From the NCBI GenBank assembly GCA_963758525.1, contig CAVWVQ010000003.1:4896001-4960000 (forward strand): 64,000 nucleotides of DNA, read 5' to 3'. Positions 24,993-43,282 of this stretch are shown here, piece after piece. Origin of the DNA: an uncultured Phycisphaerales bacterium. GTDB taxonomy: Bacteria > Planctomycetota > Phycisphaerae > Tepidisphaerales > Tepidisphaeraceae. Below the pieces are notes generated by a model. That model did not search any database. It saw only the letters and a program-made list of their open reading frames with translations, and was not told the origin of the DNA. Each line of letters begins with the position of its first letter. Positions within the stretch are counted from its first letter, which is position 1. A program made the position numbers and the translations under genes.

Positions 24993-26798
24993 ATGGCCGC
25001 TGAATATTCCATCGGGATCGATCTGGGAACGACGAACTGCGTGCTGGCCTACGCCGCGCTCAATGATGAGCATCCCCAGGTTCAGGTGCTGCTGATCCCG
25101 CAGCTTGTGGCCGCATCGACCGTCGAATCGCGCGATTTTCTTCCGTCGTTCCTGTACCTGGCGCCGCCGGAGGAGAAAGCCGGCGGCGCGTACGATCTGC
25201 CCTGGGAACAGGGGCGTTGTGAAGCCGTCGGCGTGCTGGCGCATCGTCAGGCGGCGGACGTGCCGACGCGGACCGTCGTTGCCGCCAAGAGCTGGCTGGC
25301 ATACAGCAAGGTCGACCGCCATCAGCCGATTCTTCCTTGGAACGCGCCGGCTGACGTTGCGAAGGTATCGCCGGTGGATGCGTCGGTCAGCTACCTCCGG
25401 CATCTTGCCGGCGCATGGAACGCCGCATTTCCCAACGCGCCGTTGGCGGATCAGCAGGTCGTGCTGACCGTCCCGGCGTCGTTCGATGCCAGCGCCCGCG
25501 AATTGACCCGTGAAGCGGCGCTCAAAGCGGGCTTGCCCGACGACCTGATTTTGCTCGAAGAGCCGCAGGCCGCGCTGTACGCGTGGCTGGCCGACATGGG
25601 CGACGCCTGGCGGCGCAAAGTGAAGGCCGGCGACACACTGCTCGTCTGCGACGTCGGCGGCGGAACCACCGACTTCACCCTCATCGGAGTGACCGACGAC
25701 GCGGGCGAACTCGGCCTGCGCCGCATTGCCGTCGGCAATCACACGCTCGTCGGCGGCGACAACATGGATCTCACGCTCGCGCATTTCGCCGGAGCGGCAC
25801 TCGCCAAAAAGGGCGTTACTCTCGATCCCTGGCAGTCGGTTTCGTTATGGCATGCCTGCCGATCCGCGAAGGAATCATTGCTGGCTGAGCGCGGGAAGCA
25901 GACATTTCCCGTGTCGGTTCTCGGCCGCGGCAGCAAACTCGTCGGCGGGGCCGTCTCAGTCGATCTGGATCGTGCCGCCGTCAAAGAGCTTCTCGTAGAT
26001 GGCTTCTTCCCCGCGTGCGCGCTCGAAGACAAGCCGGCCCGCCGGCGCGCTTCGGGCTTCCGCGAGATCGGATTGCCGTTTGAAAACGACACCGGAATCA
26101 CCCGGCACCTCGCCGCTTTTCTTGCCGCCAATGCCGATGAATCCGGCAAACCGATCCGCCCGACGCACCTCCTCTTCAACGGCGGCGTCTTCAAAGCCGT
26201 CGCATTTCGCGAGCGATTGACCGAAGTGATCGGGAGTTGGTTCGCCACCGGCAAAGGCGCCGTCGTCCCGAAGGTTCTGGAAGGAAACGAAGATCTTGAC
26301 TACGCCGTGGCCCGCGGCGCCGCCTATTACGGCGTCGCCAAACACGGCCGCGGCGTGCGCATTCGCGGCGGCGCGCCGCGCAGCTATTACGTCGGCATCG
26401 AAACCGCCGGCCTCGCGATCCCCGGCGCACCCCGGCCGCTGCGCGCCCTCTGCGTCGTCCCTTTCGGCATGGAAGAGGGAACCGAGACCGACATCGCCGG
26501 CGACCCGATCGGCCTGGTCGTTGGCGAGCCCGCCGTCTTCCGTTTCTTCTCGTCATCCGTTCGCAAGCTGGACCAGCCCGGCGATCTGATCGCCCAGTGG
26601 ACCGAAGCCGAGCTGGAAGAAACCGATTCGCTGGAAGCCAATCTCACCAAGCCCGAAAAGGTGGAGGAAGATTATGTTCCCGTACATTTCCATTCGCACA
26701 TCAGCGAGTTGGGAGTCTTTGAATTGTGGTGCGTCAGCGCGCTAAATAACGAGCGATGGAAGCTGGAATTCAGCGTGCGCGATGATGCCGATGCGTGA
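24993..26798 (+). CDS. Hsp70-family protein (non-DnaK, DUF2760-associated)
   Basis: GIDLGTTN, TVPASFD, EEPQAA, DVGGGTTD, GGDNMD, VARGAA. Confidence 0.9.
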   Translation: MAAEYSIGIDLGTTNCVLAYAALNDEHPQVQVLLIPQLVAASTVESRDFLPSFLYLAPPEEKAGGAYDLPWEQGRCEAVGVLAHRQAADVPTRTVVAAKSWLAYSKVDRHQPILPWNAPADVAKVSPVDASVSYLRHLAGAWNAAFPNAPLADQQVVLTVPASFDASARELTREAALKAGLPDDLILLEEPQAALYAWLADMGDAWRRKVKAGDTLLVCDVGGGTTDFTLIGVTDDAGELGLRRIAVGNHTLVGGDNMDLTLAHFAGAALAKKGVTLDPWQSVSLWHACRSAKESLLAERGKQTFPVSVLGRGSKLVGGAVSVDLDRAAVKELLVDGFFPACALEDKPARRRASGFREIGLPFENDTGITRHLAAFLAANADESGKPIRPTHLLFNGGVFKAVAFRERLTEVIGSWFATGKGAVVPKVLEGNEDLDYAVARGAAYYGVAKHGRGVRIRGGAPRSYYVGIETAGLAIPGAPRPLRALCVVPFGMEEGTETDIAGDPIGLVVGEPAVFRFFSSSVRKLDQPGDLIAQWTEAELEETDSLEANLTKPEKVEEDYVPVHFHSHISELGVFELWCVSALNNERWKLEFSVRDDADA

Positions 26799-28598: not shown

Positions 28599-28832
28599 AT
28601 GAATGTAATTTTGAGCCATACGGCGGAGATCGCCGTGCGAACCGTGGGGGACGAGGATCGGCGGAAGGTGCATCCCTGGATCGACTATCTCAAGAAGTGG
28701 GAGCAGGGCGCGTTCGTGCGGTCGAAGGTGAGAAGTGTTCAGTTCCCTTCTGGTCGAAGCCCGCGATGCGGTCCGCCGCGACCGCCGCAAGTCGGCGTGA
28801 ATCCACCCGTCCGATTTGAGCAATTGGCATGA
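28599..28832 (+). pseudogene. Truncated paralogue of the RelE-like gene
   Basis: MNVILSHTAEIAVRTVGDEDRRKVHPWIDYLKKWEQGAFVRSK matches the first half of 26950-27231, then diverges. Confidence 0.7.
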
Positions 28833-29449
28833 CCCTGCAAACAGAAACAAAAGTACCGGCACGAACGTCCGCGGCTCTCTCGTACGAACAATTCCTCGAA
28901 CTGATGGGCGGGGAGCATGTTGAATGGGTGGATGGGGAGATCATCAAAATGGCGCCCATATCGGACGAGCATCAGTATTTAGGCCTGTTCCTTTTGGCTG
29001 TGTTGCGTCCGTTCGTGGAATTTCATGAGCTGGGCCAATTGCTGTATGAGCCGTTCCAGATGAAAACCGGCCCCGATCTGCCGGGACGATCGCCCGACAT
29101 ATTGTTTGTTGCGGCCGCTAACCTGGGTCGCCTGCAACGGACGTTCCTGGACGGGCCGGCGGACATGGTGGTCGAAATCATCAGCCCGGACAGTCAATCC
29201 CGTGACCGCGGTGAGAAATTTTCCGAATACGAACGCGGCGGCGTCCGCGAGTACTGGCTGCTTGATCCCATTCGCAAGCAGGCCGATTTTTACACGCGCG
29301 GCGACGATGGTATTTTCCGCCTGTTGCCGATGACTGACGGTGTTTTCCGCAGCAGCGTGCTGCCGGGATTCTGGCTCAAGACTGACTGGCTGTGGCAGAT
29401 GCCATTGCCCGGCACAATTAGCGTCATGAAGGAACTAGGTTTGATTTAG
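28829..29449 (+). CDS. Uma2 family (DUF820) endonuclease-fold protein
   Basis: EWVDG, PDILFV, VVEIISP, DRGEKF..Y...GVREYWLLDP. Confidence 0.9.
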   Translation: MTLQTETKVPARTSAALSYEQFLELMGGEHVEWVDGEIIKMAPISDEHQYLGLFLLAVLRPFVEFHELGQLLYEPFQMKTGPDLPGRSPDILFVAAANLGRLQRTFLDGPADMVVEIISPDSQSRDRGEKFSEYERGGVREYWLLDPIRKQADFYTRGDDGIFRLLPMTDGVFRSSVLPGFWLKTDWLWQMPLPGTISVMKELGLI

Positions 29450-29709: not shown

Positions 29710-31499
29710 ATGCCCAACTCCCTTCCATCAACCTCGGCTCTCGAAGCCGCCAGGGCAAAGAATAAACGCGGCATTCAACTGGCCCAGACCGGGAGGCTCG
29801 GCGAGTCCGTCGAGGCCTTTCGCAAGGCCATTCGCTACTACCCGGAGTTCTTTGATGCTCATTGCAACCTCGGCAATGTCCTGACCTTTCAAAAGAAGTT
29901 TCCTGACGCGCTGCGATCTTATCAGCGGGCACTGGAGCTGCGCCCGGCGATGCCAGTCTGATCAACAACATCAGCAACCTCCTTCGCGAGCAGGGCGATT
30001 ATGAAGGCGCCGCCGAACGCGCCAGGGAAGCGCTGGCCATACTTCCCGATCATGCCGGCGCATATAACAACCTGGGCGCGGCGCTCCAGCAGTTGGACAG
30101 GCTGCCTGAAGCGATCGTGGCTTTTGAGAGAGCTCGCTCTCTCGCGCCGACGATGCCGGATGTTCTGCTGAATCTGGCTGCCGCGCTTTGGAAAGAGGGC
30201 CGCTTTGATGAATCCGTTTTGCGCGCGCGGGAATTGCTCCGGCTGCAGCCCGATTCTGCGATGGCGAACGTCTATCTCGGGCTTTCGCTGTGCAAGCTCG
30301 CAAAACATGCCGAGTCCGAAGCGGCTTTGCGCGAATCGGTGCGGCTCTCTCCCGCTGAGCCCAAGACGCATCGCAACCTTGCGTTTGTGCTGCTGGAGGC
30401 GCGCCGCTTCAGCGAGGCGGAGACTGCCGCGAGAAAAGCCGTCTCGCTCGATCCGGCCTGCGCCGAGTATCACGCAATGCTTGGCGTGGCGCTCGCCAAG
30501 CAGGGTCGCTATGAAGAAGCGTTGAACACCTACGAGACTGCGCTCAAGCTCCGCCCGGAGGATCCCGAAGCACGCATGCACCGCGGCCTGGTCATGCTGG
30601 TCACGGGCGACTTCGAGCAGGGATGGGAGGAGTACGAATGGCGGCTGCAGGGAGTGACCTGGGTGGCGCCGCCGTCTCCAATGTGGGACGGCGGCCGACT
30701 CGACGGGCGGACCATTCTACTGCACGCCGAGCAGGGGGTCGGCGACACCTTCCAGTTCATCCGCTATGCGCCGCTCGTGAAGGAAAAAGGGGCCACGGTC
30801 GTGCTGAGAGTCGATGCTTCGCTCATTCCGCTCCTCGAGGCGTCGCCGGGCATCGATCGGCTCGTGCCGATGGACGCGGAGGTGGAAGAGGCCGACGTGC
30901 ACATCGCGTTGATGAGCTTGCCACATCGATTGAAGACGCGATTGGAGACAATACCGGCTTCCATACCTTACGTTTTTCCCGACGATCGCGCGATCGAGCG
31001 ATGGCGGCGGGAGCTGAACAGCACCCGCGGCTTCAAGGTCGGCGTGGTTTGGAAAGGGAACCCCGAACACCCTGATGATTGCGATCGTTCGCTCGCGTTA
31101 AGCGATCTGGAGCCGCTGAGTTCGATTCCAAATGTGACGCTCTTCAGCCTTCAACGCAACGCCGCCGACGAGCTGCGATCGGCAACCTTTCAGATCGAGG
31201 ATCTTGCCGCAAGGGAGGATAAGACTCGTGGCTCGTTCATGGACTCGGCCGGCCTGCTCCGCAATCTCGATCTGCTGATCACCTGCGATACGTCGGTGGC
31301 CCATCTGGCCGGAGCCATGGGCGTTCCTGTCTGGATTCTGCTGGCTTATATCCCGGATTTTCGCTGGATGCTGGGAAGGGAAGATTCGCCGTGGTACCCC
31401 TCTGCCAGGCTATTCCGTCAGGCCACTGCGGGTGATTGGAGCAAAGTCATTGAACGGGTCGCAGGCTGTCTGCGGGAAAAGTTCTCCGGCCCGGCATAA
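29710..31499 (+). CDS. TPR-repeat protein with C-terminal glycosyltransferase-like (GT9-like) domain; frameshift near 29955
   Basis: TPR repeats, GWEEYEWR, EQGVGDTFQF, DTSVAHLAGAMG, SPWYPSARLFRQ. Confidence 0.85.
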
Positions 31500-31666: not shown

Positions 31667-33386
31667 TCAATCCGGCTTGCCCGCTGAATACATCTCCAAG
31701 ATCTCATCCGCCGAAAGTGGTTTCTTGAAGATTGCGATTTCATCAATCGACCCGGTGAACGTCGTGTCGAGGTGGTCGGTCTTATCCTTCCGCGAACCAA
31801 TGTAGACCGGCCCGGGAACGGAGAGCAGCCGCAGAGTCGCTTTCGTCTGATTGGTCAATTTGCCGTCGACGAAGAGACGCAGCGCTGCGGCTTTGGGATC
31901 ATAGACACAAGTGACCAGATGCCATGCATCCAAAGCCGAGATATCCACCGACACCAAGGGAGCGTTCTTCACAGGTTGGCTCTGATCGCGGATCCAAGCC
32001 CCCAGCTCTCCTCCGTCGGGCGGGAAACTGATCGCGTATTGCTCATGAAAACTGGATCCTCGGCAGATGATGCCGCCGCTGGCAGACCCGGTGGTGGCTG
32101 GTCTGATCCACGCGCAGATTGTGAAGGGCGCGAGTCTCGTCCGCCGCGGGAGAAGTCGAACGCCGGGTTAGCGGGGAGCGAAACATGTTGAGCCGTGCCG
32201 GGCAGAAACGTGAGAGCGCCCTTTCCGGGCCAGCGGCCGGTGGACCACTGCGGGCGGGCATTCGCGTCGCCATCCCCCAGCGCACCGTCCAGTGAGGAAC
32301 CGGCCGATGACCGATTCAGCAGGCGATCGGGAGCATCCGTGGAACGCTCGAATGTGTAATATGCGACCAGATCCGGGTCGTCGCGAAGGTGTTCGCTGTA
32401 GCCTCGCCATCGTACCAGCGCAGCGTCGGGCGGCGCCGCCTGCAGTCGATCGAAGTCCGTCTGCCTGAAATATGCGGCCGGGTTGGAATCGATTGCGGTG
32501 ATCAAATTGTCCGCGGAGATCCGCCGGGCTGAGCCCGCGCCCAGCAGCAGCGGCTTATCGTCGGCCTGGTTAGCGCGGGCCGACAGCGGCGAATTTGCCG
32601 AGAGCGAGACGGTTCCCTTGAACACGTCGACGTCGCTCAGCCCGTTCTCACGGACATTCACGCCGAACTCGGTGCCCAGGTCGACTACCGTTGCGCCAGG
32701 GCAAGTCACGGTGAATCCATGCGCGGCTGGGGGTACCACGGCGGTGAGCTTTCCGGAGAGCAGAGTCAGGGCGTTGCTTCCGTCTGCTTTCAACCGGGCC
32801 GGCGCTTCCACGACGACCTGGGCGCCCGTTTTGAATCGGATGCGCACAGACCCGAGGTGAGTTCGATTACGGTCGGCGGCATTTCGTCGCCGGTTTGCAG
32901 CGAAACTGGAGTCCCGCCCCATGAGGCGTCCACCGTGGCAACGAGGATGGGAGCGGATCGCCGAGTGAGAAGAAACGCAACGCCGATCGAAATCAGCACG
33001 AGTGCGGCAGCCGAAACCCAGGCAGGACGCCCACGCAACCAGCGAAAACGTGCCGTGAACTTTTCGCTGCGTCGGACGGGATGCTCGTCTTCCGCCGCGA
33101 CTTCGTCCGGCACCGCACCCGGCGCATCGACGAGGGCGGGAACAATCATGGCGTCGTTCAGATCGACGGTGTCCGGACCGGGTTCGGCGTCCGACGGCCC
33201 GATCGCGATCTGGTCGTAGAGCAGCGAGCTATGGAGTTCAATGTAAAGAAGGTAGCGGTCCCGGGCCTGCGGCTCAGACTTGAGGAGGAAATTCAGACGC
33301 TCCGTTCCGTCGGAGTCCAGCCGATCCTCCAGCAATTGCTCCAGGAGTGAATCCAATTCGGGATTTGGCGGAGCGAGGAAATTCAT
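31667..33386 (-). CDS. FecR-domain anti-sigma factor with C-terminal LamG (concanavalin-like) domain; two probable frameshifts
   Basis: Anti-sigma-like N-terminus, TM helix, VVDLGTEFGV, WHLVTCVYD...LFVDG...GSIDEIAIF; ATG overlaps the ECF stop. Confidence 0.8.
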
Positions 33387-33946
33387 GCCAGCTCCCCAGT
33401 AAGGGCCATCGACAGCGATCGCCGAATGCACTCGAGGAGCCCCTGACGGATCCGGCCCAGTGACTTGTACACCGAGTTTTGCGGCCGGCCGAGCTCCGCG
33501 GCTACTTTTTTGCCCGATTCCCCCGACATGTACCGCCGCAGGACCAGCTCGCGATCCTCCGCGCGTAACTTCGTGAGGCACGTCTGCAGCGCGTCACGGG
33601 CGTTATCCAGATGCTCCGTGCTTTCAATCGATCGTGCGGCCAATGTTTCCAGAACCTCCTCGTCCAGCGGGAAAGACTGACGCCGTGAGGATTTGCGATA
33701 ACTCAGCACCTGCAGGAACGCCACTCGCGCTGCCCATGCGTAAAAATCCGTGCCAGGCCGGAATTCCGAGAACCTGCGCCAGAGAACCAGATTGGTCTCC
33801 TGCAGCACGTCCTCTGCCGCATGGAGACGCGGGAGCAGGGTCAGGATGTAGCGAAACAGCCGGCGGTGGTGGGCCGCGAACAGCGCCATGAACTCCTCAG
33901 CATGGTCACCGCGGGGGAAAGGTGGATTGTCGCCTGGGAGAGCCAT
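33383..33946 (-). CDS. ECF sigma-70 factor (Planctomycetes/Verrucomicrobia type)
   Basis: AEDVLQETNLVLWRRF..F, F.AWA, region 4 VYKSLGRIR..L..CI. Confidence 0.9.
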   Translation of the reverse strand: MALPGDNPPFPRGDHAEEFMALFAAHHRRLFRYILTLLPRLHAAEDVLQETNLVLWRRFSEFRPGTDFYAWAARVAFLQVLSYRKSSRRQSFPLDEEVLETLAARSIESTEHLDNARDALQTCLTKLRAEDRELVLRRYMSGESGKKVAAELGRPQNSVYKSLGRIRQGLLECIRRSLSMALTGELA

Positions 33947-33961
33947 AGTCAGTTAATCAAG

Positions 33962-33985
33962 AATATCCGTGGCCGCCCGAATGTG
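33962..33985 (-). promoter_or_regulatory. Putative ECF promoter, copy 1 (upstream of the ECF gene)
   Basis: CACATTC-gggcggccac-GGATATT on the minus strand, 15 nt before the ATG. Confidence 0.7.
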
Positions 33986-34021
33986 CGTGCAAAAATATTT
34001 GGACAGAGCTCTTTTCCGACA

Positions 34022-34045
34022 CACATTCCAACTGGATGGGATATT
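34022..34045 (+). promoter_or_regulatory. Putative ECF promoter, copy 2 (upstream of the prepilin gene)
   Basis: CACATTC-caactggatg-GGATATT. Confidence 0.7.
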
Positions 34046-34082
34046 TATGTACGGAGGGGACCGCTTCTGTCCGGAGGTTGAT

Positions 34083-35285
34083 ATGCGGTGCGATGGCAAA
34101 CGATCTGCGGTCAGGAGTGATGTGACTCTCGGCGAGCGCCCTGCGGTGACTGGACGGAAACACGGTTTGACGCTCGTCGAGCTGCCTGTAGTGAGCAGAC
34201 TCAAACACTCTTCCCTTCGTGCCTCCGTGCCGCAGTTCACCCGCCGCGGCGGGTGCCTTCGTGCCTCTCCCCGTCACGGCTTTACGCTCGCGGAGCTGCT
34301 GGTGGTGATCGGGATCATTGCCCTGCTGATCGCCATCCTGCTTCCCGCGTTGTCCGCCGCGCGGCAGTCGGCGCAGACGGTGAAATGCGAGGCGCAGCTG
34401 CGAACCCTGGGGCAGGCGCTGATCATGCATGCCAATGAGCATCGGGGGTATATGCCGCTGGTTGGAAATATCAGCGTCGGTCCCGCGGGAGCGAAGAATG
34501 ACAATCCCAGGGATGTGGGCGACGGGGCGATGCAACGGTACGACTATTACCCCGACAGCCATGGGTTGATGCTGATGCCATTGCCCGACGCGCTGGCGCC
34601 TTACCTTGGCGCTTCGCAGGTCTCCAGCGACTGGCTGTCGATCGAGAATGCGATGATGACCGGCGTCTACCGCAGCGCCTTTCAATGCCCCACGGATGAG
34701 TACAACGAAATGCAGACGGTCATGTGGCCTGCGCCGCTGTGGATCAATAACCAGAACGGCAACACATTCGTGGGATGGTCGAGCTACGGCTACAACTCAG
34801 ACGTGTTTGGGTGGTACCAGGGGTATACCTGGAACCGCCTGCATGGAAACCTCGCGCGCATACCCAATCCTTCCGAGACAATGCTGCTGATGGACATCTC
34901 GCTGAGTAACGCTGTAGCCAACAAACAGCAAAGCCAGGGATCCCTGGAGATATGGACGACCATCGCAGAGTCGTCGCTGGCCGATGTTTACTACGAGGGC
35001 GGGCTCTCTCCGCAGGTTGGCTCCGTCAACAACAACGTGTTCGATCTTGTGCGGCATCGGGGTAAGGCCAACATCCTCTGCGCCGATGGGCATGTCGAGA
35101 GCGATCCGATTCTGGCGAACGGCGGAACAACGACGGGCGGCGCTGCGATCGGCGCCGGCGCGAATGTTCCCAGCGGATACGCTCCGGGGGCAAGCGCCGT
35201 CCCGGGCAAGCCCATTTCCGGCGGAGGCTCGCTTGCCGGGATCTCCTTCAATAAGAGTTTTGGAAAAGGTGGCGCGGGATCTTAG
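34083..35285 (+). CDS. Prepilin-type N-methylation / H-X9-DG (DUF1559-like) protein
   Basis: [36 protein letters not shown]....[17 protein letters not shown]. Confidence 0.9.
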
Positions 35286-35286
35286 C

Positions 35287-35420
35287 AGGGTTCAGGGTGT
35301 CAGGGTTCAGGGTTCAGGAAAATGCAAGGGTGAAGAATAAAGAGTGCGTAGCGAAGTTTGCAATGGCTGCGCTCTTACTCTCCACCCTTCACTCTTTTCC
35401 ACTTCTGAACCCTGAACCCC
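35287..35420. repeat. Heptamer (GGGTTCA) repeats with an inverted partner
   Basis: AGGGTTCAGGGTGTCAGGGTTCAGGGTTCAGG ... CTGAACCCTGAACCC. Confidence 0.6.
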
Positions 35421-35448
35421 CCGACGCACCGATCAGCAGTGACTGGCT

Positions 35449-35967
35449 ATGGGTTTTCGCGAAGCATTAGAAAAGCATCCGCTCCTCGGCAGGGTCGTTG
35501 CCATCCTGTTCATCGGCCTATGTGCAGTGATCATTTTGCGCGAACTGCGGAGCTTTGACCTTTCTGGGCCGGCTCCAGTTGCCGCGGGCAAGGAATTCTA
35601 CAGCGACGATGACGGCAGGACCTGGTTCCTCGGTGACGGGATGGCGGGTTCTCCAATCGATCATAACGGCAAGCCAGCCTACCGTGCACTGGTCTATCGC
35701 TGTCCTGGCGGCAAGCCGTTTGTTGCATATCTCGCAAAGTATTCCGACGAGCAGCAGGCTCAAATCGCCCGCGATACTGCCAAACATCCGGGGCTCTCGC
35801 AGGCGCAGCTCGGGCCGATGGGGTCAATCAGGAAGCCCGGCGGGACAAAGTGGGTCGCAAATTCGTCGCCAGCGGTCACCGGCTATCCGTCCGTCCCATG
35901 TCCTGATGGGTCTGGGACCGCCAGCCCGGTCTCGCTAGCCGATCCCGATTCGGGCGCTGCGAATTGA
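35449..35967 (+). CDS. Hypothetical single-pass membrane protein
   Basis: N-terminal TM helix, FYSDDDGRTWF, YRC.GGKPFVAYL, second Cys near the C-terminus. Confidence 0.7.
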   Translation: MGFREALEKHPLLGRVVAILFIGLCAVIILRELRSFDLSGPAPVAAGKEFYSDDDGRTWFLGDGMAGSPIDHNGKPAYRALVYRCPGGKPFVAYLAKYSDEQQAQIARDTAKHPGLSQAQLGPMGSIRKPGGTKWVANSSPAVTGYPSVPCPDGSGTASPVSLADPDSGAAN

Positions 35968-35988
35968 GAAAAAATCTCTGCTGAAACA

Positions 35989-36012
35989 CACATTCTGACG
36001 GTGACGGATATT
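35989..36012 (+). promoter_or_regulatory. Putative ECF promoter, copy 3 (upstream of the PEP-CTERM gene)
   Basis: CACATTC-tgacggtgac-GGATATT. Confidence 0.7.
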
Positions 36013-36093
36013 TATCTGCAGCGGCGAGCGCATTGCGCAGTCATCGCGAGAGTGCGGCAGGAAAGATTACGCAGCAGAGAGCGGTGGAGAAAC

Positions 36094-39000
36094 ATGCAAA
36101 ATCGTAGCGAAGTCATCGGCAGACGAACTATCTCTCGTACACTCAGGCGCCGGCAGAAGGCAACCCGACGCATGCCGCTGGCAGCTGCCGCGGCGGCAGC
36201 ATTCGCCTCGGTCTTCCACTCCGGGATGGCCAAAGCGAACACTGCCGACAACGTCACCAACGGACAGTCCGACCTGGGTGCGTCGGGAACGTATGGAGGT
36301 GGGTCGCCCACCACTTCCAGCGATGTGACATTCACCAACGTTACCTACAGCCCAACAGCATTTACGCTAAACACCAACGCGGCCAACCTAAACATTGGCA
36401 CACTGGATGACTTGGACGCTACCCAGACGCTCACGATCCAAAACACGACCAGCGGCTCCACCACCACGATTACATTGAACGGCGGCTCCAATTCGACCGC
36501 TTCACCGGCGAACGCCGCTGACCTGCTTTATGTCGCCTCCGGCGGCACGCTCTCGATGGGTACGGCTGGGGCTGGCACCCTGGGTCTGGCGCTGGCATCC
36601 AGCGGGAACTTCGATGTTGCCGGCACCGCCAACGTCACTTCGGCCATCTCCGGCAGCGGCTTTGGCTTCACCAAGACCGGAGCGGGTTCGCTGACGCTCT
36701 CAGGCCCAAACACCTATACTGGCAATACCGGCGTCGCGATGGGGAATACGACCGGATTAAACACCTCCAGCATCCTCAATCTCTCCTATGCAGCGAACCA
36801 GACGAACATCATCAATAACGCCGCGAACAGCTCGGCCCTCATCCTTGGCGGCAGCCTGACTTCGGACGCGACTACTGTTCTCGGTGGAGGTCGATTGACC
36901 CTCACGGGCGTCGCCACCAGCACGAACACTCAGAGCTTCAATGGCATGACGGTCGGAACCGGCGGCAACAACATCGTCTTTGCGAACAATGCAACCGCGA
37001 ACACGATCGCCCTCAATGTGGGCGCCATCAGCCGGACTGTGGGCGGCACGCTGCACATCACGCAACCGACCGGCACGGTTTCGGCCTCGAACGGTGTGGC
37101 GACCACGACCGGCACGGCGAGCACGATCCTGACGGACGCGAACGGGACGGCCTACGCCACCGTCGGAGGAACCGCAGCGGCGGCGGGAGATTGGGCGGCA
37201 AAAGATTCGACCAACGGCTTCATTGTCGGCGGTTCGACGATTAGCGGTTTTTACACCACGGCGACTTCCGCGGCGACCTTCAGCGGAAATGCGGATGTGA
37301 CGACCGGATTCACCGCGACTGCCGGCACGACGGTCAACAGCATCCGGATGAACAACAACACGGCCCAAACGCTGAATATCAACAGTAGCGGCAATACGAC
37401 CGTGAGCACGGGCGGCATTCTCTTCGGATCGACGGGCAGCTCAGTCATCACCGGGACGGGCACTGCCAAGCTGATCGCAGGCGCTGGCAAAGAACTGGTT
37501 TTCATCAACACCAGCAACGGCGCGCCCCAGATTAGCGCAGTCATTGCAGATAGTGGTTCGGGTGCGAGCAGCGTCACCTACCGCGCTCTCCAGCTTACTT
37601 CGGGCAACGGACAGTTCGCTATCGGCAGCGCCGGCAACAGCTACACGGGTAATACCTACATCGAGAGTGGTCGCGTCGCAACGAGCGTCAGCACTGCGTT
37701 CGGCACCGGTGCCGGTGCAAACGTTTACATCGATGGAAACACCAACGGCCAAGCCTATCTTACCGGCGGCACGTTTGCCAACCACTTCTACCTCGTCGGC
37801 AACGGCTGGAATGAGACTAATGGCCCTTACGGAGCGCTTCGCCTTCAGGGCGCCACCGTCTCCGGTCAAGTCACTCTCCTCGGCAATGCCACGATCAGTG
37901 ATCAAGGCGGAACTGGAACCATCAGCGGGGTGATCGACGACGGCGGCAATGCCTACGCACTGACCGTCAATGGCGGCAACACGCTGAATCTCAACAACTC
38001 GAACACCTACACCGGCGGAACGACGATCATCGCGGGCACGCTGTCGTTGGGAAATAGCAGTGCGCTGGGTGCGGGCACGGTGACGTTTAACGGCGGCACA
38101 CTGGCGAACTCGGCGAACGTAACTCTTGCCAACAATCTCTCCACGACATCCAACACTGCCAACATCACTGCATCGGGTGGAACGATGGTTCTCAATGGAA
38201 ACACCACCGGGGCGAATGGCTTTAACTTGACGCCGACAAACAAGATTACCCTCGGCGGCACAAACAATATCACGAACACTGCGAGCGGCGGAGCAGGCCT
38301 GAGTATCACCGGCGGAGCTGGCGGCGTGGACATCACCGGATCGACGACGGTCGCTGGGACTGCGTCAACGAATAACGGATACTTAAGCGTGGCGGGAACC
38401 GTGACGCTGACAGTCCAGTCCGGCGGCTCGTTGACGGTTAATGGCACGACTTCCACAGTCCCCAACTCCATCGTTGGTCAGAATGCATCAGGCACGAGCA
38501 CGCTCGTGGTGAATGGGGGGACTTTGGGAATCGGGGGAAACACGGGCATAGCCTTCGGTAACAACCTCGCCGCCGCCACCGGCGTTCTCACAATCTCCTC
38601 CGGTACTGCGACGATCACAGCGGGCAGCACGACGTTGCAAAACGTCCAGAATTTCGTTGCGCTGGGTCGCGATGCCGCGACCGGCATCATCAATCTCGAT
38701 GGTGGCACTCTGGCAACGGGGCGCCAATTTGTCCGCGATGGCAGCAGCGGCGGCACGGCAGGCACGGGCGCGGCGACATTCAACTTCAACGGTGGCACGC
38801 TTCAAGCGCAGGCCGATCAGACTTCCGGCAATGGCTGGTTTGAAACGGCCACAACCGGCAATTTCCAAGTCGTCACGACCATCGTTAAGGCCGGCGGAGC
38901 GAAGATCGACACGAACAGCTTTACCACGAAGATCAACACGGTGCTCGCGCACGACGCTGGCCTCGGTGCCACCGCAGACGGCGGCCTTATCAAGAGCGGC

Positions 39001-39846
39001 TTGGGGACGTTGAGTCTCGGCGGCTCGAGCAGTTACACCGGCGCGACGACGATTACCGCAGGCACACTTGCCCTCAGCGGAAACTTTTCAAACAATATCG
39101 CCTCCTCTGCGGCGATCACCGTTGGCTCCGGCGCAACGCTCGACGTGACTGGACTGACCAATATCGCCGGCACGATCACCCTCGCAAGCGGGCAGAAGCT
39201 CGGGGGAATTGGCACGGTGAACGGGAAGACGATCGTGGCTTCCGGCAGCACGATCTCCGCCGGCACAAGCACCACTCTGGGCACCGGCGCGTCAAACACT
39301 ACTGGGACGCTCACCACAGGCAATGAGAAATTCGCCGCGGGCGGAACTTACGCCGTCAAGACCAACGACGTCACCGGCACTTCCGGAAACGCCACGGGGT
39401 GGGATGACATCTCGATGGCCACGCTCGACTCTTCAGCCTTGGGCTCCAGCACCACGTTCGCGGTCACTTTTACCAGTTCCGCATCACCGGCGGCGCATTT
39501 TGCCAACGCCAGCAACTACACATGGGTCATTGCCAACATCACCACCGGTTCGTTTCCCGTCAATACCCCGCTGGCTGTGACCAATAGCTCGGGGAACTCA
39601 ATCGGAACCACGGCCTCCAGCCTGTTTACCCTGGATACCAGTGCCTTCGTCGCCAGCAATCCGGTGTCCGGATCAGGCTCGTCGTTCTACCTGGAAGCGC
39701 TTGGCACTCAGGGCGGCAGCGAGACCCTGGAGATCGGCTACAACGCCACGCCCGAGCCGGGAACGGCCATGCTGATTCTCGCTGGCGCAATCCCGATGTT
39801 GACCGCTCGTCGCCGTCGCCGAGAGGCCGACCGACGGACAGCCTGA
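36094..39846 (+). CDS. Large PEP-CTERM surface protein with autotransporter-associated beta-strand repeats
   Basis: TKTGAGSLTLSGPNTYTG-type repeats; C-terminal TPEPGT + hydrophobic stretch + RRRRR. Confidence 0.9.
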   Translation: MQNRSEVIGRRTISRTLRRRQKATRRMPLAAAAAAAFASVFHSGMAKANTADNVTNGQSDLGASGTYGGGSPTTSSDVTFTNVTYSPTAFTLNTNAANLNIGTLDDLDATQTLTIQNTTSGSTTTITLNGGSNSTASPANAADLLYVASGGTLSMGTAGAGTLGLALASSGNFDVAGTANVTSAISGSGFGFTKTGAGSLTLSGPNTYTGNTGVAMGNTTGLNTSSILNLSYAANQTNIINNAANSSALILGGSLTSDATTVLGGGRLTLTGVATSTNTQSFNGMTVGTGGNNIVFANNATANTIALNVGAISRTVGGTLHITQPTGTVSASNGVATTTGTASTILTDANGTAYATVGGTAAAAGDWAAKDSTNGFIVGGSTISGFYTTATSAATFSGNADVTTGFTATAGTTVNSIRMNNNTAQTLNINSSGNTTVSTGGILFGSTGSSVITGTGTAKLIAGAGKELVFINTSNGAPQISAVIADSGSGASSVTYRALQLTSGNGQFAIGSAGNSYTGNTYIESGRVATSVSTAFGTGAGANVYIDGNTNGQAYLTGGTFANHFYLVGNGWNETNGPYGALRLQGATVSGQVTLLGNATISDQGGTGTISGVIDDGGNAYALTVNGGNTLNLNNSNTYTGGTTIIAGTLSLGNSSALGAGTVTFNGGTLANSANVTLANNLSTTSNTANITASGGTMVLNGNTTGANGFNLTPTNKITLGGTNNITNTASGGAGLSITGGAGGVDITGSTTVAGTASTNNGYLSVAGTVTLTVQSGGSLTVNGTTSTVPNSIVGQNASGTSTLVVNGGTLGIGGNTGIAFGNNLAAATGVLTISSGTATITAGSTTLQNVQNFVALGRDAATGIINLDGGTLATGRQFVRDGSSGGTAGTGAATFNFNGGTLQAQADQTSGNGWFETATTGNFQVVTTIVKAGGAKIDTNSFTTKINTVLAHDAGLGATADGGLIKSGLGTLSLGGSSSYTGATTITAGTLALSGNFSNNIASSAAITVGSGATLDVTGLTNIAGTITLASGQKLGGIGTVNGKTIVASGSTISAGTSTTLGTGASNTTGTLTTGNEKFAAGGTYAVKTNDVTGTSGNATGWDDISMATLDSSALGSSTTFAVTFTSSASPAAHFANASNYTWVIANITTGSFPVNTPLAVTNSSGNSIGTTASSLFTLDTSAFVASNPVSGSGSSFYLEALGTQGGSETLEIGYNATPEPGTAMLILAGAIPMLTARRRRREADRRTA

Positions 39847-40055: not shown

Positions 40056-40430
40056 GCATGCCACGCATCTTCTAAAAGAGCGTCCCGCGGCGGGCCAAGG
40101 AGTTGCGTGCCGGATGCGACATGCGACGCTGCAAAATCTGTCGCGCGATGTCGCAGGAGTCAGAAGAAAGAAGCAAGAAGAGCATGGGTCTGCGCCGCCT
40201 TGCGCGGATCAGTTCCGACGGAGAATTCGTCGGCTTTGGGAAACTCACCATCAAGGTGAAATCGCCCCTTCCTGTAAAAAGATGTCAAACAATGTAAAGC
40301 GGAATGAAAATGGGGAACAGAAAACATCTAAAATGGAAGCGGCGCGCGGGGGAACGGGCCCGTGCAATCGCGATGCGGAAAAACTCGTGCAAGCCGTGAA
40401 CGAGCAATGGAGGCTACACTACCTCACGTC

Positions 40431-43282
40431 ATGAATGTCGAGAATTCAGAGCAGCCGCGCAGATACCTCATCGGCATCGATCTCGGAACCACCAACTCCG
40501 CAATGGCATTCGTCGACACTGCTGAGAAGATCTGGGCGGTGAAAGACTTTCCAATTCCTCAGCTTGTCGGCGCTGGGCAGGTCGAGTCGCGCGACGTTTT
40601 GCCGTCGTTTCACTATGAGGCGGCCGAGAATGAATTCGCCGCGGGAGCGCTGCGGTTGCCGTGGGAAACTGCGGAGCACGAACGCGCCTTTGTCGGTGCT
40701 TTTGCCCGCGATCATGGCGCCCAGGTGCCGGGGCGGCTGGTCACCTCCGCCAAGTCGTGGCTCTCTCATTCCGGTGTCGATCGCACGGCGGGGTTGCTCC
40801 CCTGGCACGGCGCGGCTGACGTGCAAAAGTTCTCGCCGGTCGAGGTATCAAGTCGCTATCTCTCGCACATCCGCGCGGCGTGGGACGCAGCCCATCCCGA
40901 ACATCCACTGGGCCAGCAGGACGTCGTGCTCGCGGTGCCGGCGTCGTTCGACGAGGTGGCGCGTGAGCTGACGATCCAGGCGGCACAGGCGCGGGGCTGG
41001 CGCGCGTCGCGCTGGTGGAAGAACCGCAGGCGGCGTTCTATGCGTGGATCGATGCGCAGGGGGGCTCATGGGACCAGCAGGTCAGCGCGGGTCAGACGAT
41101 TCTGGTCTGCGACGTCGGCGGGGGCACCAGCGATTTCACGCTCATACGGGTAAAGCCAGCGGCAAATCGAAGCGTCCTGTTCCATCGGGTTGCGGTGGGA
41201 GAACATCTCATTCTCGGCGGGGACAATCTCGACTTGGCGCTGGCTCATCATATTGAGCAGCGCCTTGGGAGCGGCAAGCTGCATCCGGGCCAGTGGGGCC
41301 CGCTGATTCGGATTTGCCGGCAGGTGAAGGAAACCTTCCTGGGAAAGAATCCGCCGGAGCGGTTGACGGTGAGCGTTGCCGCGCCGGGAGCAAGACTGAT
41401 AGGCGGCGCATTGCAGTTGGAGCTGATGCGCAACGAAGTGGAGAAACTGCTGCTGGATGGATTCCTGCCGACAGTTGAGCTGACAGCATCGCCCGCCGCC
41501 CGACGCTCCGGGTTTCAGGAGTTTGGGCTTCCGTATGCGGCGGATGCAGCCATCACCCGATACCTCGCGGCGTTCCTCCGCGCGCACCGCGAGAAGCGCG
41601 ACGTTGGCAGCGGAGCGCCCTTACCCTCCTCGCTCCGCGGCGGAACCGAGGGCGCAGAAGCATCGCGGCCTGACATGGTTCTTTTCAATGGCGGATTGTT
41701 TGAATCGCCATTGCTCAGGAAGCGACTGATCGATGCGCTGGGGGCCTGGTTCCGCGGGGACGATCACGACTGGTCTCCCAAGATCCTGCGGAATGACCGG
41801 ATGGATCTGGCGGTGGCTCGCGGCGCGGCATACTACGCGATGGTGCGGCGCGGACGGGGCGTGCGCATTTCCGGCGGGCTGGCGCATTCCTATTATCTGG
41901 GCGTCGAAACCGGCTCGGCGCTCATGGCGGTCTGTCTGTTGCCCGCGGGGATCGAGCAGGGGCAGACAGTCGATCTGACCGGCCGGCGCTTTGCGTTGCG
42001 AGTGCGCCAGCCGGCGGAGTTTCCGCTTTACTTTTCCAGCACACGCACGACAGATCGTCCAGGCGAATTGATCGCCATCGAACGCGAGCAACTTACGGCG
42101 CTGCCGCCGATCCGCACCGTGATGCAGTCGAGCGGGGCGAAGGACGCCGATACCGTGACAGTTCAATTGCACGCCCGGCTGACAGAAGTGGGAACGCTCG
42201 ACATCTGGTGCGCGGAAGCCGAGGGAGAGCGGCGGTGGAAGCTGCAGTTTGACGTTCGCGCGGCGTCGCGCAGCGATTCGGCGCGACACACGGGAGAAGG
42301 GGAGGGGCACGGGGTTGTCGAGGATCGATTGCTCGAATCATGCCGCCGGAGCATTCGCGCGGCATTCGACGACAACGCTTCAGGTACGCCTGCGGGGATC
42401 GTTAAAAAATTGGAAGCTGACACAGGGATGTCGCGCAACGAATGGCCTCCGACGCTGCTGCGGAGCTTTTGGGAAACGTTGCTCGAGATGGACGGCACCA
42501 GAAAGCGCAGCGTGGAACACGAGGCGCGATGGCTCAGCCTCACCGGGTTTTCGCTGCGACCTGGTTATGGATTGGCGGTGGACGACTGGCGCGTCGCCAT
42601 GACATGGAGGCTCTACCAGGCCGGGACCACGCAGCCGAAGAACGAGCTGTGTCGCGCCGAATGGTGGATTCTCTGGCGACGCGTCGCCGGAGGACTGCTG
42701 ACGGCGCAGCAGACATTAGTCGGTGAGCCGCTGGTTGCGGACTGGCGCACCTATTTTCGCAAGGGAGGCATCGGCGTTCGCGGGCGGTCGCCTCAGTTTC
42801 AGTTCGGACCCCACGAGTCGGCCGAGGTATGGCGTCTGCTTGGATCGCTTGAATTGCTGCGCCCATCAGTGAAAAGTGAGCTGGGGCACATGATTCTCGA
42901 TCGTTTGCCGCGCGAGAAGATGCCGGCATCGCGTGACGCGATGTTATTCGCGCTGGGCCGGCTCGGTGCGAGGCAGCCGGTCTACGGGCCGCTCAATAGG
43001 TTGGTTCCGATCGAGGAAGCGGAGAGTTGGCTCGATCGATTGCTGCAGATGAATCTTGCCGATGAGCGTTCGGTCTTCGCGATCGTCCAACTTTCCCGAA
43101 GAACGGACGATCGGCACCGCGACCTGGCCGATGCGCCGCGCCGCAAAGTGCTCGACTGGCTCGCAACCCGTGCTGCGCCAGCACATCTGGTCGAACTGGT
43201 CCGCGTCGGCGGCGTTTTGCAGGAGCGGGAGCAGCGAAGTGTTTTCGGGGAAACACTGCCGCGGGGTCTGCGGATTGAATAA
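40431..43282 (+). CDS. Hsp70-family protein with C-terminal DUF3731-like domain; frameshift near 40995
   Basis: GIDLGTTN, VPASFDE, EEPQAA, DVGGGTSD; C-terminal GFSLRPGYG..VDDWR, EWWILWRRVAGGL, FGETLPRGL. Confidence 0.85.

Follow-up and report, generated by a model that had tools for sequence, protein, structure and literature searches.

A rare bipartite motif as candidate cognate promoter of an ECF46-like sigma factor in a Tepidisphaerales surface-protein cassette

The window analysed here is a 64,000-nucleotide stretch from the genome of an uncultured Phycisphaerales bacterium affiliated with the Tepidisphaeraceae (contig CAVWVQ010000003.1, positions 4,896,001 to 4,960,000). It harbours a cassette of genes for an extracytoplasmic function (ECF) sigma factor, a putative anti-sigma factor, a prepilin-like protein, a small membrane protein and a PEP-CTERM surface protein, in which the bipartite motif CACATTC-N10-GGATATT occurs three times. 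Judged from sequence comparison, this motif is very probably the cognate promoter of the neighbouring ECF46-like sigma factor, recognized by RNA polymerase when associated with this ECF.

Gene content of the cassette and its motif copies

The ECF46-like sigma factor (187 aa; 33383..33946, minus strand) matches TIGR02989 (Sig-70_gvs1) with 168 bits over the whole profile, as compared to a cut-off of 124.55 and to 167.1 and 159.9 bits for its orthologues. With Sigma70_r2 at residues 22-89, Sigma70_r4_2 at residues 118-168 and no region 3, the protein has the domain composition of an ECF sigma factor. It aligns to the structures of SigL, SigE and SigH, and its start agrees with those of orthologues P0002-P0005 and P0007 to within a few residues. 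Its stop codon overlaps the start (ATGA) of the gene for the putative anti-sigma factor and sensor (31667..33386, minus strand), which comprises FecR and Laminin_G_3 domains and one membrane helix with cytoplasmic N-terminus; the helix coincides with the lone hydropathy peak at residue 123 of the N-terminal piece, and a single peak is also present in the intact orthologue.

The plus strand encodes a prepilin-type N-terminal cleavage/methylation protein of 400 aa (34083..35285; N_methyl, TIGR02532), a single-helix membrane protein of 172 aa from a family designated FYSDDDG (35449..35967), which is a recurring cassette member, and a PEP-CTERM surface protein of 1250 aa with passenger-associated (PATR) repeats (36094..39846). 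The identities originally assigned to the sigma factor, prepilin and PEP-CTERM genes hold, as evidenced by matches to TIGR02989, N_methyl/TIGR02532 and, above cut-off, TIGR02595. The N-terminus of the prepilin-like protein is doubled, and its two pilin-like motifs are parted by a short in-frame repeat element (34161-34290) with many copies in the genome. The 172-aa protein matched no profile in Pfam or NCBIfam scans; at least 100 homologues were listed, falling into hypothetical clusters of the Planctomycetota, and 20 open reading frames (ORFs) with the family motif are present in the genome. Its fold was predicted with a pLDDT (predicted local distance difference test) of 90, and the model had no Foldseek match at E 0.001 and a best VIA Z of 2.5 in the libraries searched, a result that does not by itself establish a new fold.

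Copy 1 of the motif (33962..33985, minus strand) precedes the ECF/anti-sigma operon, copy 2 (34022..34045, plus strand) the genes for the prepilin-like and membrane proteins, and copy 3 (35989..36012, plus strand) the PEP-CTERM gene. These positions are exactly those of the original prediction, and none of 100 shuffles produced any copy. All three are intergenic and point at their downstream genes, likewise as predicted, with distances between the second box and the ATG of 15 nt (ECF), 37 nt (prepilin-like) and 81 nt (PEP-CTERM). Spacers and flanks differ among copies 1-3 while the boxes are fixed, in agreement with the earlier description of the spacers as unrelated. No motif copy directly precedes the gene for the 172-aa membrane protein, which is likely transcribed from copy 2 together with the prepilin-like gene. 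A reversed reading of the motif was discarded, since copy 3 and a further copy described below would then point away from their genes.

In all 6 contigs of the genome (6.47 Mb), the exact motif occurs three times, in each case in the cassette and together within less than 2.1 kb. The two 7-mers occur 675 and 571 times, corresponding to 0.03 expected dyads, and spacers of 6-9 or 11-15 nt between them yielded no exact match genome-wide. The genome-wide scan that had been proposed as a check thus revealed a rare and gene-oriented motif rather than a frequent one. The earlier impression that the window contains no other copy is correct for exact copies; it missed a fourth copy with one mismatch outside the window, at G000 C3:2688402, 2.2 Mb from the cassette and ahead of an alginate-lyase-like gene that reads in two frames. 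In the following, the motif of the window cassette is termed W, and the paralogous cassettes, with their motifs where present, are labelled A-J. A W matrix trained on seven sites (three from the window, four from orthologues; C3:2688402 left out) assigned 31.0 bits to the fourth copy, 33-36 bits to the three window training sites and 20.2 bits to the next-best place in the genome. Not counted as targets were 23 genomic sites with two mismatches and C3:2123122, where no ORF of more than 100 aa begins within 260 nt. The exact motif was also found in 10 of 400 other genomes of the class (12 matches); these were taken as background, since many lie within long ORFs and no ECF homologue was present in the fetched flanks (at most 1.5 kb per side).

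Conservation in orthologous loci and motifs of paralogous cassettes

When 190 loci with ECF homologues were scanned with the pattern of the original prediction, sites with at most one mismatch were restricted to the locus of the window and to L031 and L032, whose ECFs are 82% and 74% identical, respectively; the remaining sites had two mismatches. Both L031 and L032 contain a divergent motif pair with altered spacers, one copy of which is located 11-12 nt before the ECF start, and a bipartite site upstream of the ECF is accordingly kept in 2/2 orthologous DNA loci above 70% identity, as would befit an autoregulatory promoter. The pair in L032 is 290 nt apart, its divergent gene encodes a different secreted protein, and its anti-sigma orthologue is intact, forming one 568-aa protein with FecR and Laminin_G_3 domains; the contig of L031 ends before its divergent gene. 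For P0006 (79%), represented by the protein sequence only, the over-long annotated N-terminus reads H-I-x4-D-I at the motif position, like the corresponding frame in L032. A 151-nt contig of depth 2 from run X1 displays changes at 3/10 places of the copy 1 spacer and at 0/14 listed places of the boxes (10 differences in all, 3 of which, near the ends, are unlisted). Among 140 other genomes of the order, no ECF above 51% identity to P0002 was detected at the threshold used, and the single motif match resides in a coding region. No W-type site precedes the starts of seven ECFs at the phylum level (42-47% identity), where the highest scores, 11.8 and 14.4, fall into upstream coding region.

Relatives add two further candidate motifs. 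The ECF of G001 (50% identical, with the same SVYKSLGRIR helix) is associated with a divergent pair of GRCACA boxes, which represent the two best, though low, W-matrix scores in the region (4.5 and 4.3) and were found nowhere else in G001, the pattern having been derived from those two sites. In a sister clade, TGTCCA-N17-CGT was first seen at the ECFs of G459 and G034. Across 141 genomes, this pattern gave 20 matches with at most one mismatch versus 15 for the reversed control, and most of these matches are due to chance. Of 14 genomes not used in building the pattern, five were examined, selected for intergenic sites before an ORF; three of the five encode an ECF orthologue of 68-78% identity, with the motif before each ECF and in two cases as divergent pair. 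TGTCCA-N17-CGT is thereby present at ECFs of five Tepidisphaerales-level genomes (L209, L210, L269, L270, L260, L276-L279), and in two of the five also upstream of genes for secreted proteins at a distance of about 0.5 Mb.

The genome of the window encodes 11 related ECFs, all of which have an anti-sigma homologue; each is located near PEP-CTERM and prepilin-like genes, and most are near a FYSDDDG gene. Genome-wide dyad counting per cassette proved too noisy and was replaced by a pairwise search, in which the upstream region of each ECF was compared with its surroundings and two-box partners were scored. Scores of at least 34 were reached by 6 of the 11 cassette ECFs (W, A, B, C, F and H) versus 25 of 541 control genes (Fisher 7e-6); these 25 include four of the cassette partners and many low-complexity repeats. 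Overall, seven further two-box motifs (A, B, C, F, E, G, H) were delineated at G000 C3:2684552/2684577, 2704146/2704199, 644018/644031, 1833361-1841816, 3077858/3078243 and 3055292/3055513 and at C2:168300/170788, mostly as divergent pairs between the ECF and the PEP-CTERM gene. The eight cassette motifs have 21 exact copies genome-wide, 19 of which are in their own cassette and none outside the cassettes; the remaining two are cross-placed, a W copy in cassette A and an E copy in cassette G. Four sigma factors with the recognition helix VAL(H/N)R (A, B, C and F) have a TGTAA box in common.

A direct comparison of promoter and target is offered by the PEP-CTERM genes of cassettes W and A. The 1965 bp at the 5' end of the window gene (36079-38043) are 95.7% identical to C3:2684660-2686624, and these near-identical halves are placed behind different motifs, W in the window and A at C3:2684577, while their 3' halves differ; the motif therefore follows the sigma factor and not the target. 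Near-identical 5' halves combined with differing promoters and 3' halves suggest recent gene conversion between the cassettes.

Further observations pertain to cassettes G and I. At G000 C3:3055600, an E-type motif together with about 40 nt of matching flank lies behind the G-type motif and before the PEP-CTERM gene of cassette G, which may, to judge from this arrangement, answer to two sigma factors. The ECF gene of cassette I (G000 C4:71930-72547) stops early in the recognition helix, apparently by frameshift. A GCAAG..TTTGTCA..TTATG element, which does not conform to the spacing of the ECF motifs, is found near cassette I and, at a distance of 10 kb, near two genes (G000 C4:60238, 61438 and 71654); a pattern search for the cassette-I repeat retrieved nothing.

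Promoter register and alternative explanations

Aligned with the paralogous sites, the W motif fits a common grid (28 sites of 10 ECFs) in which a hexamer is followed by a tetramer rich in T (one position is T in 28/28 sites, and TT is present in 26/28), the spacer is G-rich at its end, and the -10 differs from group to group. On this grid, the -35 element is probably ACACAC, succeeded by an ATT tract and a 16-nt spacer ending in GG, and the -10 element ATATTY with T at -11; the register of W was chosen partly on the TT. The original proposal of bipartite promoter boxes is supported in this respect, but the -35 and -10 hexamers probably do not coincide with the two 7-mers. Predicted elements are ACGCAC (33988-33983), ATATTC (33966-33961) and a start near 33954 for copy 1 (minus strand), ACACAC (34019-34024), ATATTT (34041-34046) and a start near 34053 for copy 2 (plus strand), and ACACAC (35986-35991), ATATTT (36008-36013) and a start near 36020 for copy 3 (plus strand). 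The ECF mRNA would accordingly be near-leaderless, with a predicted leader of 4-8 nt in three genomes (about 8 nt in the window, where no Shine-Dalgarno-like sequence was seen).

An alternative geometry for the same sigma factor, which is a variant of the cognate-promoter reading rather than its rival, would place the -35 at CACATT and the -10 at (C)GGATAT, separated by 11-14 nt. The bases invariant in all 8 W sites are precisely CACATT and GGATAT, 11 nt apart, and GGAT recurs in paralogues C (CGGATAC) and H (YGGATTA); anchored on GGAT, the TGT box of H and the box of W are 2 nt and 3 nt closer, respectively, than in the TGTAA group. Against this compact geometry, the common grid places TT at the same two positions in 26/28 sites and provides a G-rich spacer end, a GGGC or GC is conserved directly before the CGT -10 of the sister clade, and the alignment reveals no shortened linker between sigma2 and sigma4. 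Moreover, spacers of 16-18 nt are the modelled norm for ECF promoters (PMC7776599), a spacing that the ACACAC/ATATTY register would provide and the GGATAT register would lack. The compact geometry is thus rather unlikely.

Several findings weigh against the cognate promoter or limit its support. Support from orthologues is confined to two independent DNA loci and one contig of depth 2. A pair search over 160 distinct, mostly distant ECF loci gave no excess over a coding control (2 versus 1 at scores of at least 32) and was too blunt to recover even L031 and L032; the conclusions are accordingly not extended to all of TIGR02989. Since the likeness of the fourth site to copy 3 reaches into spacer and flanks, this site is taken as copied and not as independent evidence. 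Among the paralogues, the score cut of 34 was set after the data had been seen, motifs E and G were identified by visual inspection, cassettes D, I and J yielded no repeated motif, and the patterns were derived from their own sites, so that the assignment of each motif to its own cassette is partly built in; the absence of copies elsewhere and the two cross-placed sites are not by construction. The -35 ACACAC is unlike the TGT-type boxes of the paralogues. A pyrimidine-purine step, which is typical of ECF starts (PMC7776599), coincides with the predicted start in 5/8 sites, a weak signal (p 0.027 before correcting for 11 offsets). Finally, the anti-sigma gene reads as frameshifted twice in the window and extends over three frames, with breaks near 32850 and 32130, neither of which is spanned by the contigs of runs X1 and X2 listed for the region.

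These breaks could also be taken to mean that the cassette is decaying and that the motif copies are functionless leftovers of local duplication, and the flanks common to copies 3 and 4 would agree with such an origin. Copies 1-3 have fixed boxes amid unrelated spacers and flanks, though, and the same pattern is retained in orthologues with an intact anti-sigma gene. Other long genes of the assembly read as frameshifted as well, which suggests assembly indels; a check of the frameshift rate (1 clear case in 13 genes) was based on too small a sample to decide. Decay is the least probable of the explanations considered. Hardly more credible is a function of the boxes as operator half-sites for a separate DNA-binding regulator: a fixed spacing of 10 nt would suit a dimer on one helix face, but the motif forms no palindrome and no direct repeat and points at the downstream gene in 7/7 sites where the gene is visible, motif E tolerates a one-base change in spacer length, as sigma promoters do, and each paralogous ECF would require its own unseen regulator, while no regulator gene adjoining the cassette was identified among the proteins scanned.

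The motif might furthermore be read by another sigma factor, housekeeping or encoded elsewhere, with the neighbouring ECF as mere target. GATATT agrees with the -10 hexamer TATAAT of sigma-70 at 4/6 places, and with two motifs located in foreign cassettes, location alone leaves the reader unnamed. Yet a scan for the sigma-70 consensus (TTGACA-N16-18-TATAAT-like) detected no site at any of the copies and 2 sites in 9.5 kb (2.4 expected), with the proviso that the planctomycete consensus may differ, and a housekeeping promoter would not be confined to four places. The motif is also kept together with ECF orthologues of 74-82% identity, while the 140 other genomes of the order have neither an ECF above 51% identity to P0002 nor more than the one match in a coding region. 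A foreign reader is accordingly considered improbable.

The original prediction of a cognate ECF promoter hence stands in that the motif is kept with 2/2 close orthologues and the paralogues use other motifs, while activation by the sigma factor stays predicted. The concomitant proposal that the divergent genes form one regulon is supported and is to be widened, likely including the genes for the anti-sigma factor, the 172-aa membrane protein and the distant alginate-lyase-like protein.

Outside the cassette, Uma2-family (28829-29449) and TPR-repeat (30093-31499) genes flank the anti-sigma side and have no motif copy. Two ORFs (24993-26798 and 40362-43282, the latter seemingly split over two frames) presumably code for proteins with Hsp70-like N-termini, a label we take from the GIDLGTTN motif only. 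Dispersed intergenic repeats with many copies in the genome are located at 35276-35420 (heptamer-like units) and 40077-40265.

Proposed function and comparison with known systems

The ECF46-like sigma factor would switch on its own operon, the pair of prepilin-like and membrane-protein genes, the PEP-CTERM gene and probably the distant alginate-lyase-like gene. Its region 4 would read ACACAC (about -34 to -29), aided by the ATT tract behind, and its region 2 would open ATATTY (-12 to -7) after the conserved GG. The FecR/LamG membrane protein is envisaged to keep the sigma factor inactive as long as no glycan reaches the lectin-like domain in the periplasm, and the positive feedback may be damped by the shortness of the ECF mRNA leader. 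Each cassette would then be an insulated sense-and-respond unit, and copying of promoters or genes between cassettes could rewire which sigma factor drives which surface protein. Extended to the whole set, and at somewhat less than an even chance, the ECF46-like cassette arrays of Tepidisphaerales could constitute a modular glycan-sensing switchboard: lectin-bearing sensors would release sigma factors with orthogonal promoters that drive the PEP-CTERM, prepilin-like and membrane proteins, which would act jointly as an envelope device not described before; outputs would be rewired by shuffling of promoters and gene halves; and the member in the window would use an atypical promoter, ACACAC/ATATTY, with an autoregulatory transcript that is nearly leaderless.

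Group ECF46 is described as occurring in Planctomycetes, Proteobacteria and Verrucomicrobia, with a one-helix FecR-like anti-sigma factor at position +1 that carries Laminin_G_3 and is proposed to sense carbohydrates (Casas-Pastor et al. 2021, PMC7826278). The pair in the window corresponds to this account in its planctomycete host and in the one-helix anti-sigma factor at +1 with FecR and Laminin_G_3 domains, and is named ECF46-like, an assignment by description. According to the same account, no conserved promoter was found for the group and autoregulation is possibly lacking (PMC7826278), whereas here each subtype has its own candidate autoregulatory motif; with motifs specific to subtypes, a group-wide consensus would therefore be hidden. 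Neighbouring genes differ as well, being PEP-CTERM, prepilin-like and FYSDDDG genes in the present cassettes and rhamnosidase or sulfatase genes in the lists for subgroups s3 and s4; no alpha-L-rhamnosidase or sulfatase-DUF4976 was detected among the cassette proteins scanned, which excludes only these two subgroups.

Promoters of Bacillus subtilis sigmaV, sigmaX, sigmaM and sigmaW are characterized by an AAC -35 with a conserved proximal T-tract, and those of sigmaX by a CGAC -10 (PMC5758882). Likeness to the predicted W promoter lies in the bipartite autoregulatory design and the T-rich stretch directly behind the -35, and paralogues A and B (TGTAAG/TGTAAC ... CGAC; e.g., TGTAAC-N17-CGAC) fit the AAC -35, the T-tract and the sigmaX -10 (PMC5758882). 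In contrast, the predicted -35 of W is ACACAC and not of the AAC type, the tract is a short ATT, and an invariant GG precedes the predicted AT-rich -10 ATATTY. The local ECF regulons predicted by Todor et al. 2020 (PMC7776599) are similar in being small and sparse, with an autoregulated ECF and few nearby targets, and have a spacer of 16-18 nt, as would W in the ACACAC/ATATTY register; the main text of that paper mentions planctomycetes 0 times. Literature searches found no paper on the motif or the cassette, and related motifs may lie in the datasets of PMC7776599.

Eight candidate sigma-promoter pairs on one grid, together with two from relatives, represent a natural set for the study of the ECF recognition code and of orthogonal switches. 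In addition, abundant families of prepilin-like, PEP-CTERM and unnamed membrane proteins become tied to specific candidate sensors, rendering the inducing sugars testable. While an ECF that reads its own bipartite promoter is a textbook mechanism, the W motif is a real candidate ECF promoter, well supported by sequence comparison, and the set of paralogous private motifs adds to its usefulness.

In Bacteroidetes, FecI/FecR signalling and ECF-controlled polysaccharide utilisation loci involve many paralogous pairs of sigma and FecR-type proteins with adjoining surface genes. The present genome is alike in its many sigma/FecR-type pairs, each beside surface genes that it would control. It differs in that no TonB-dependent receptor was identified in the window cassette, that an exosortase substrate, a prepilin-like protein and a membrane protein make up the output, and that the sensor possesses a lectin-like domain of its own.

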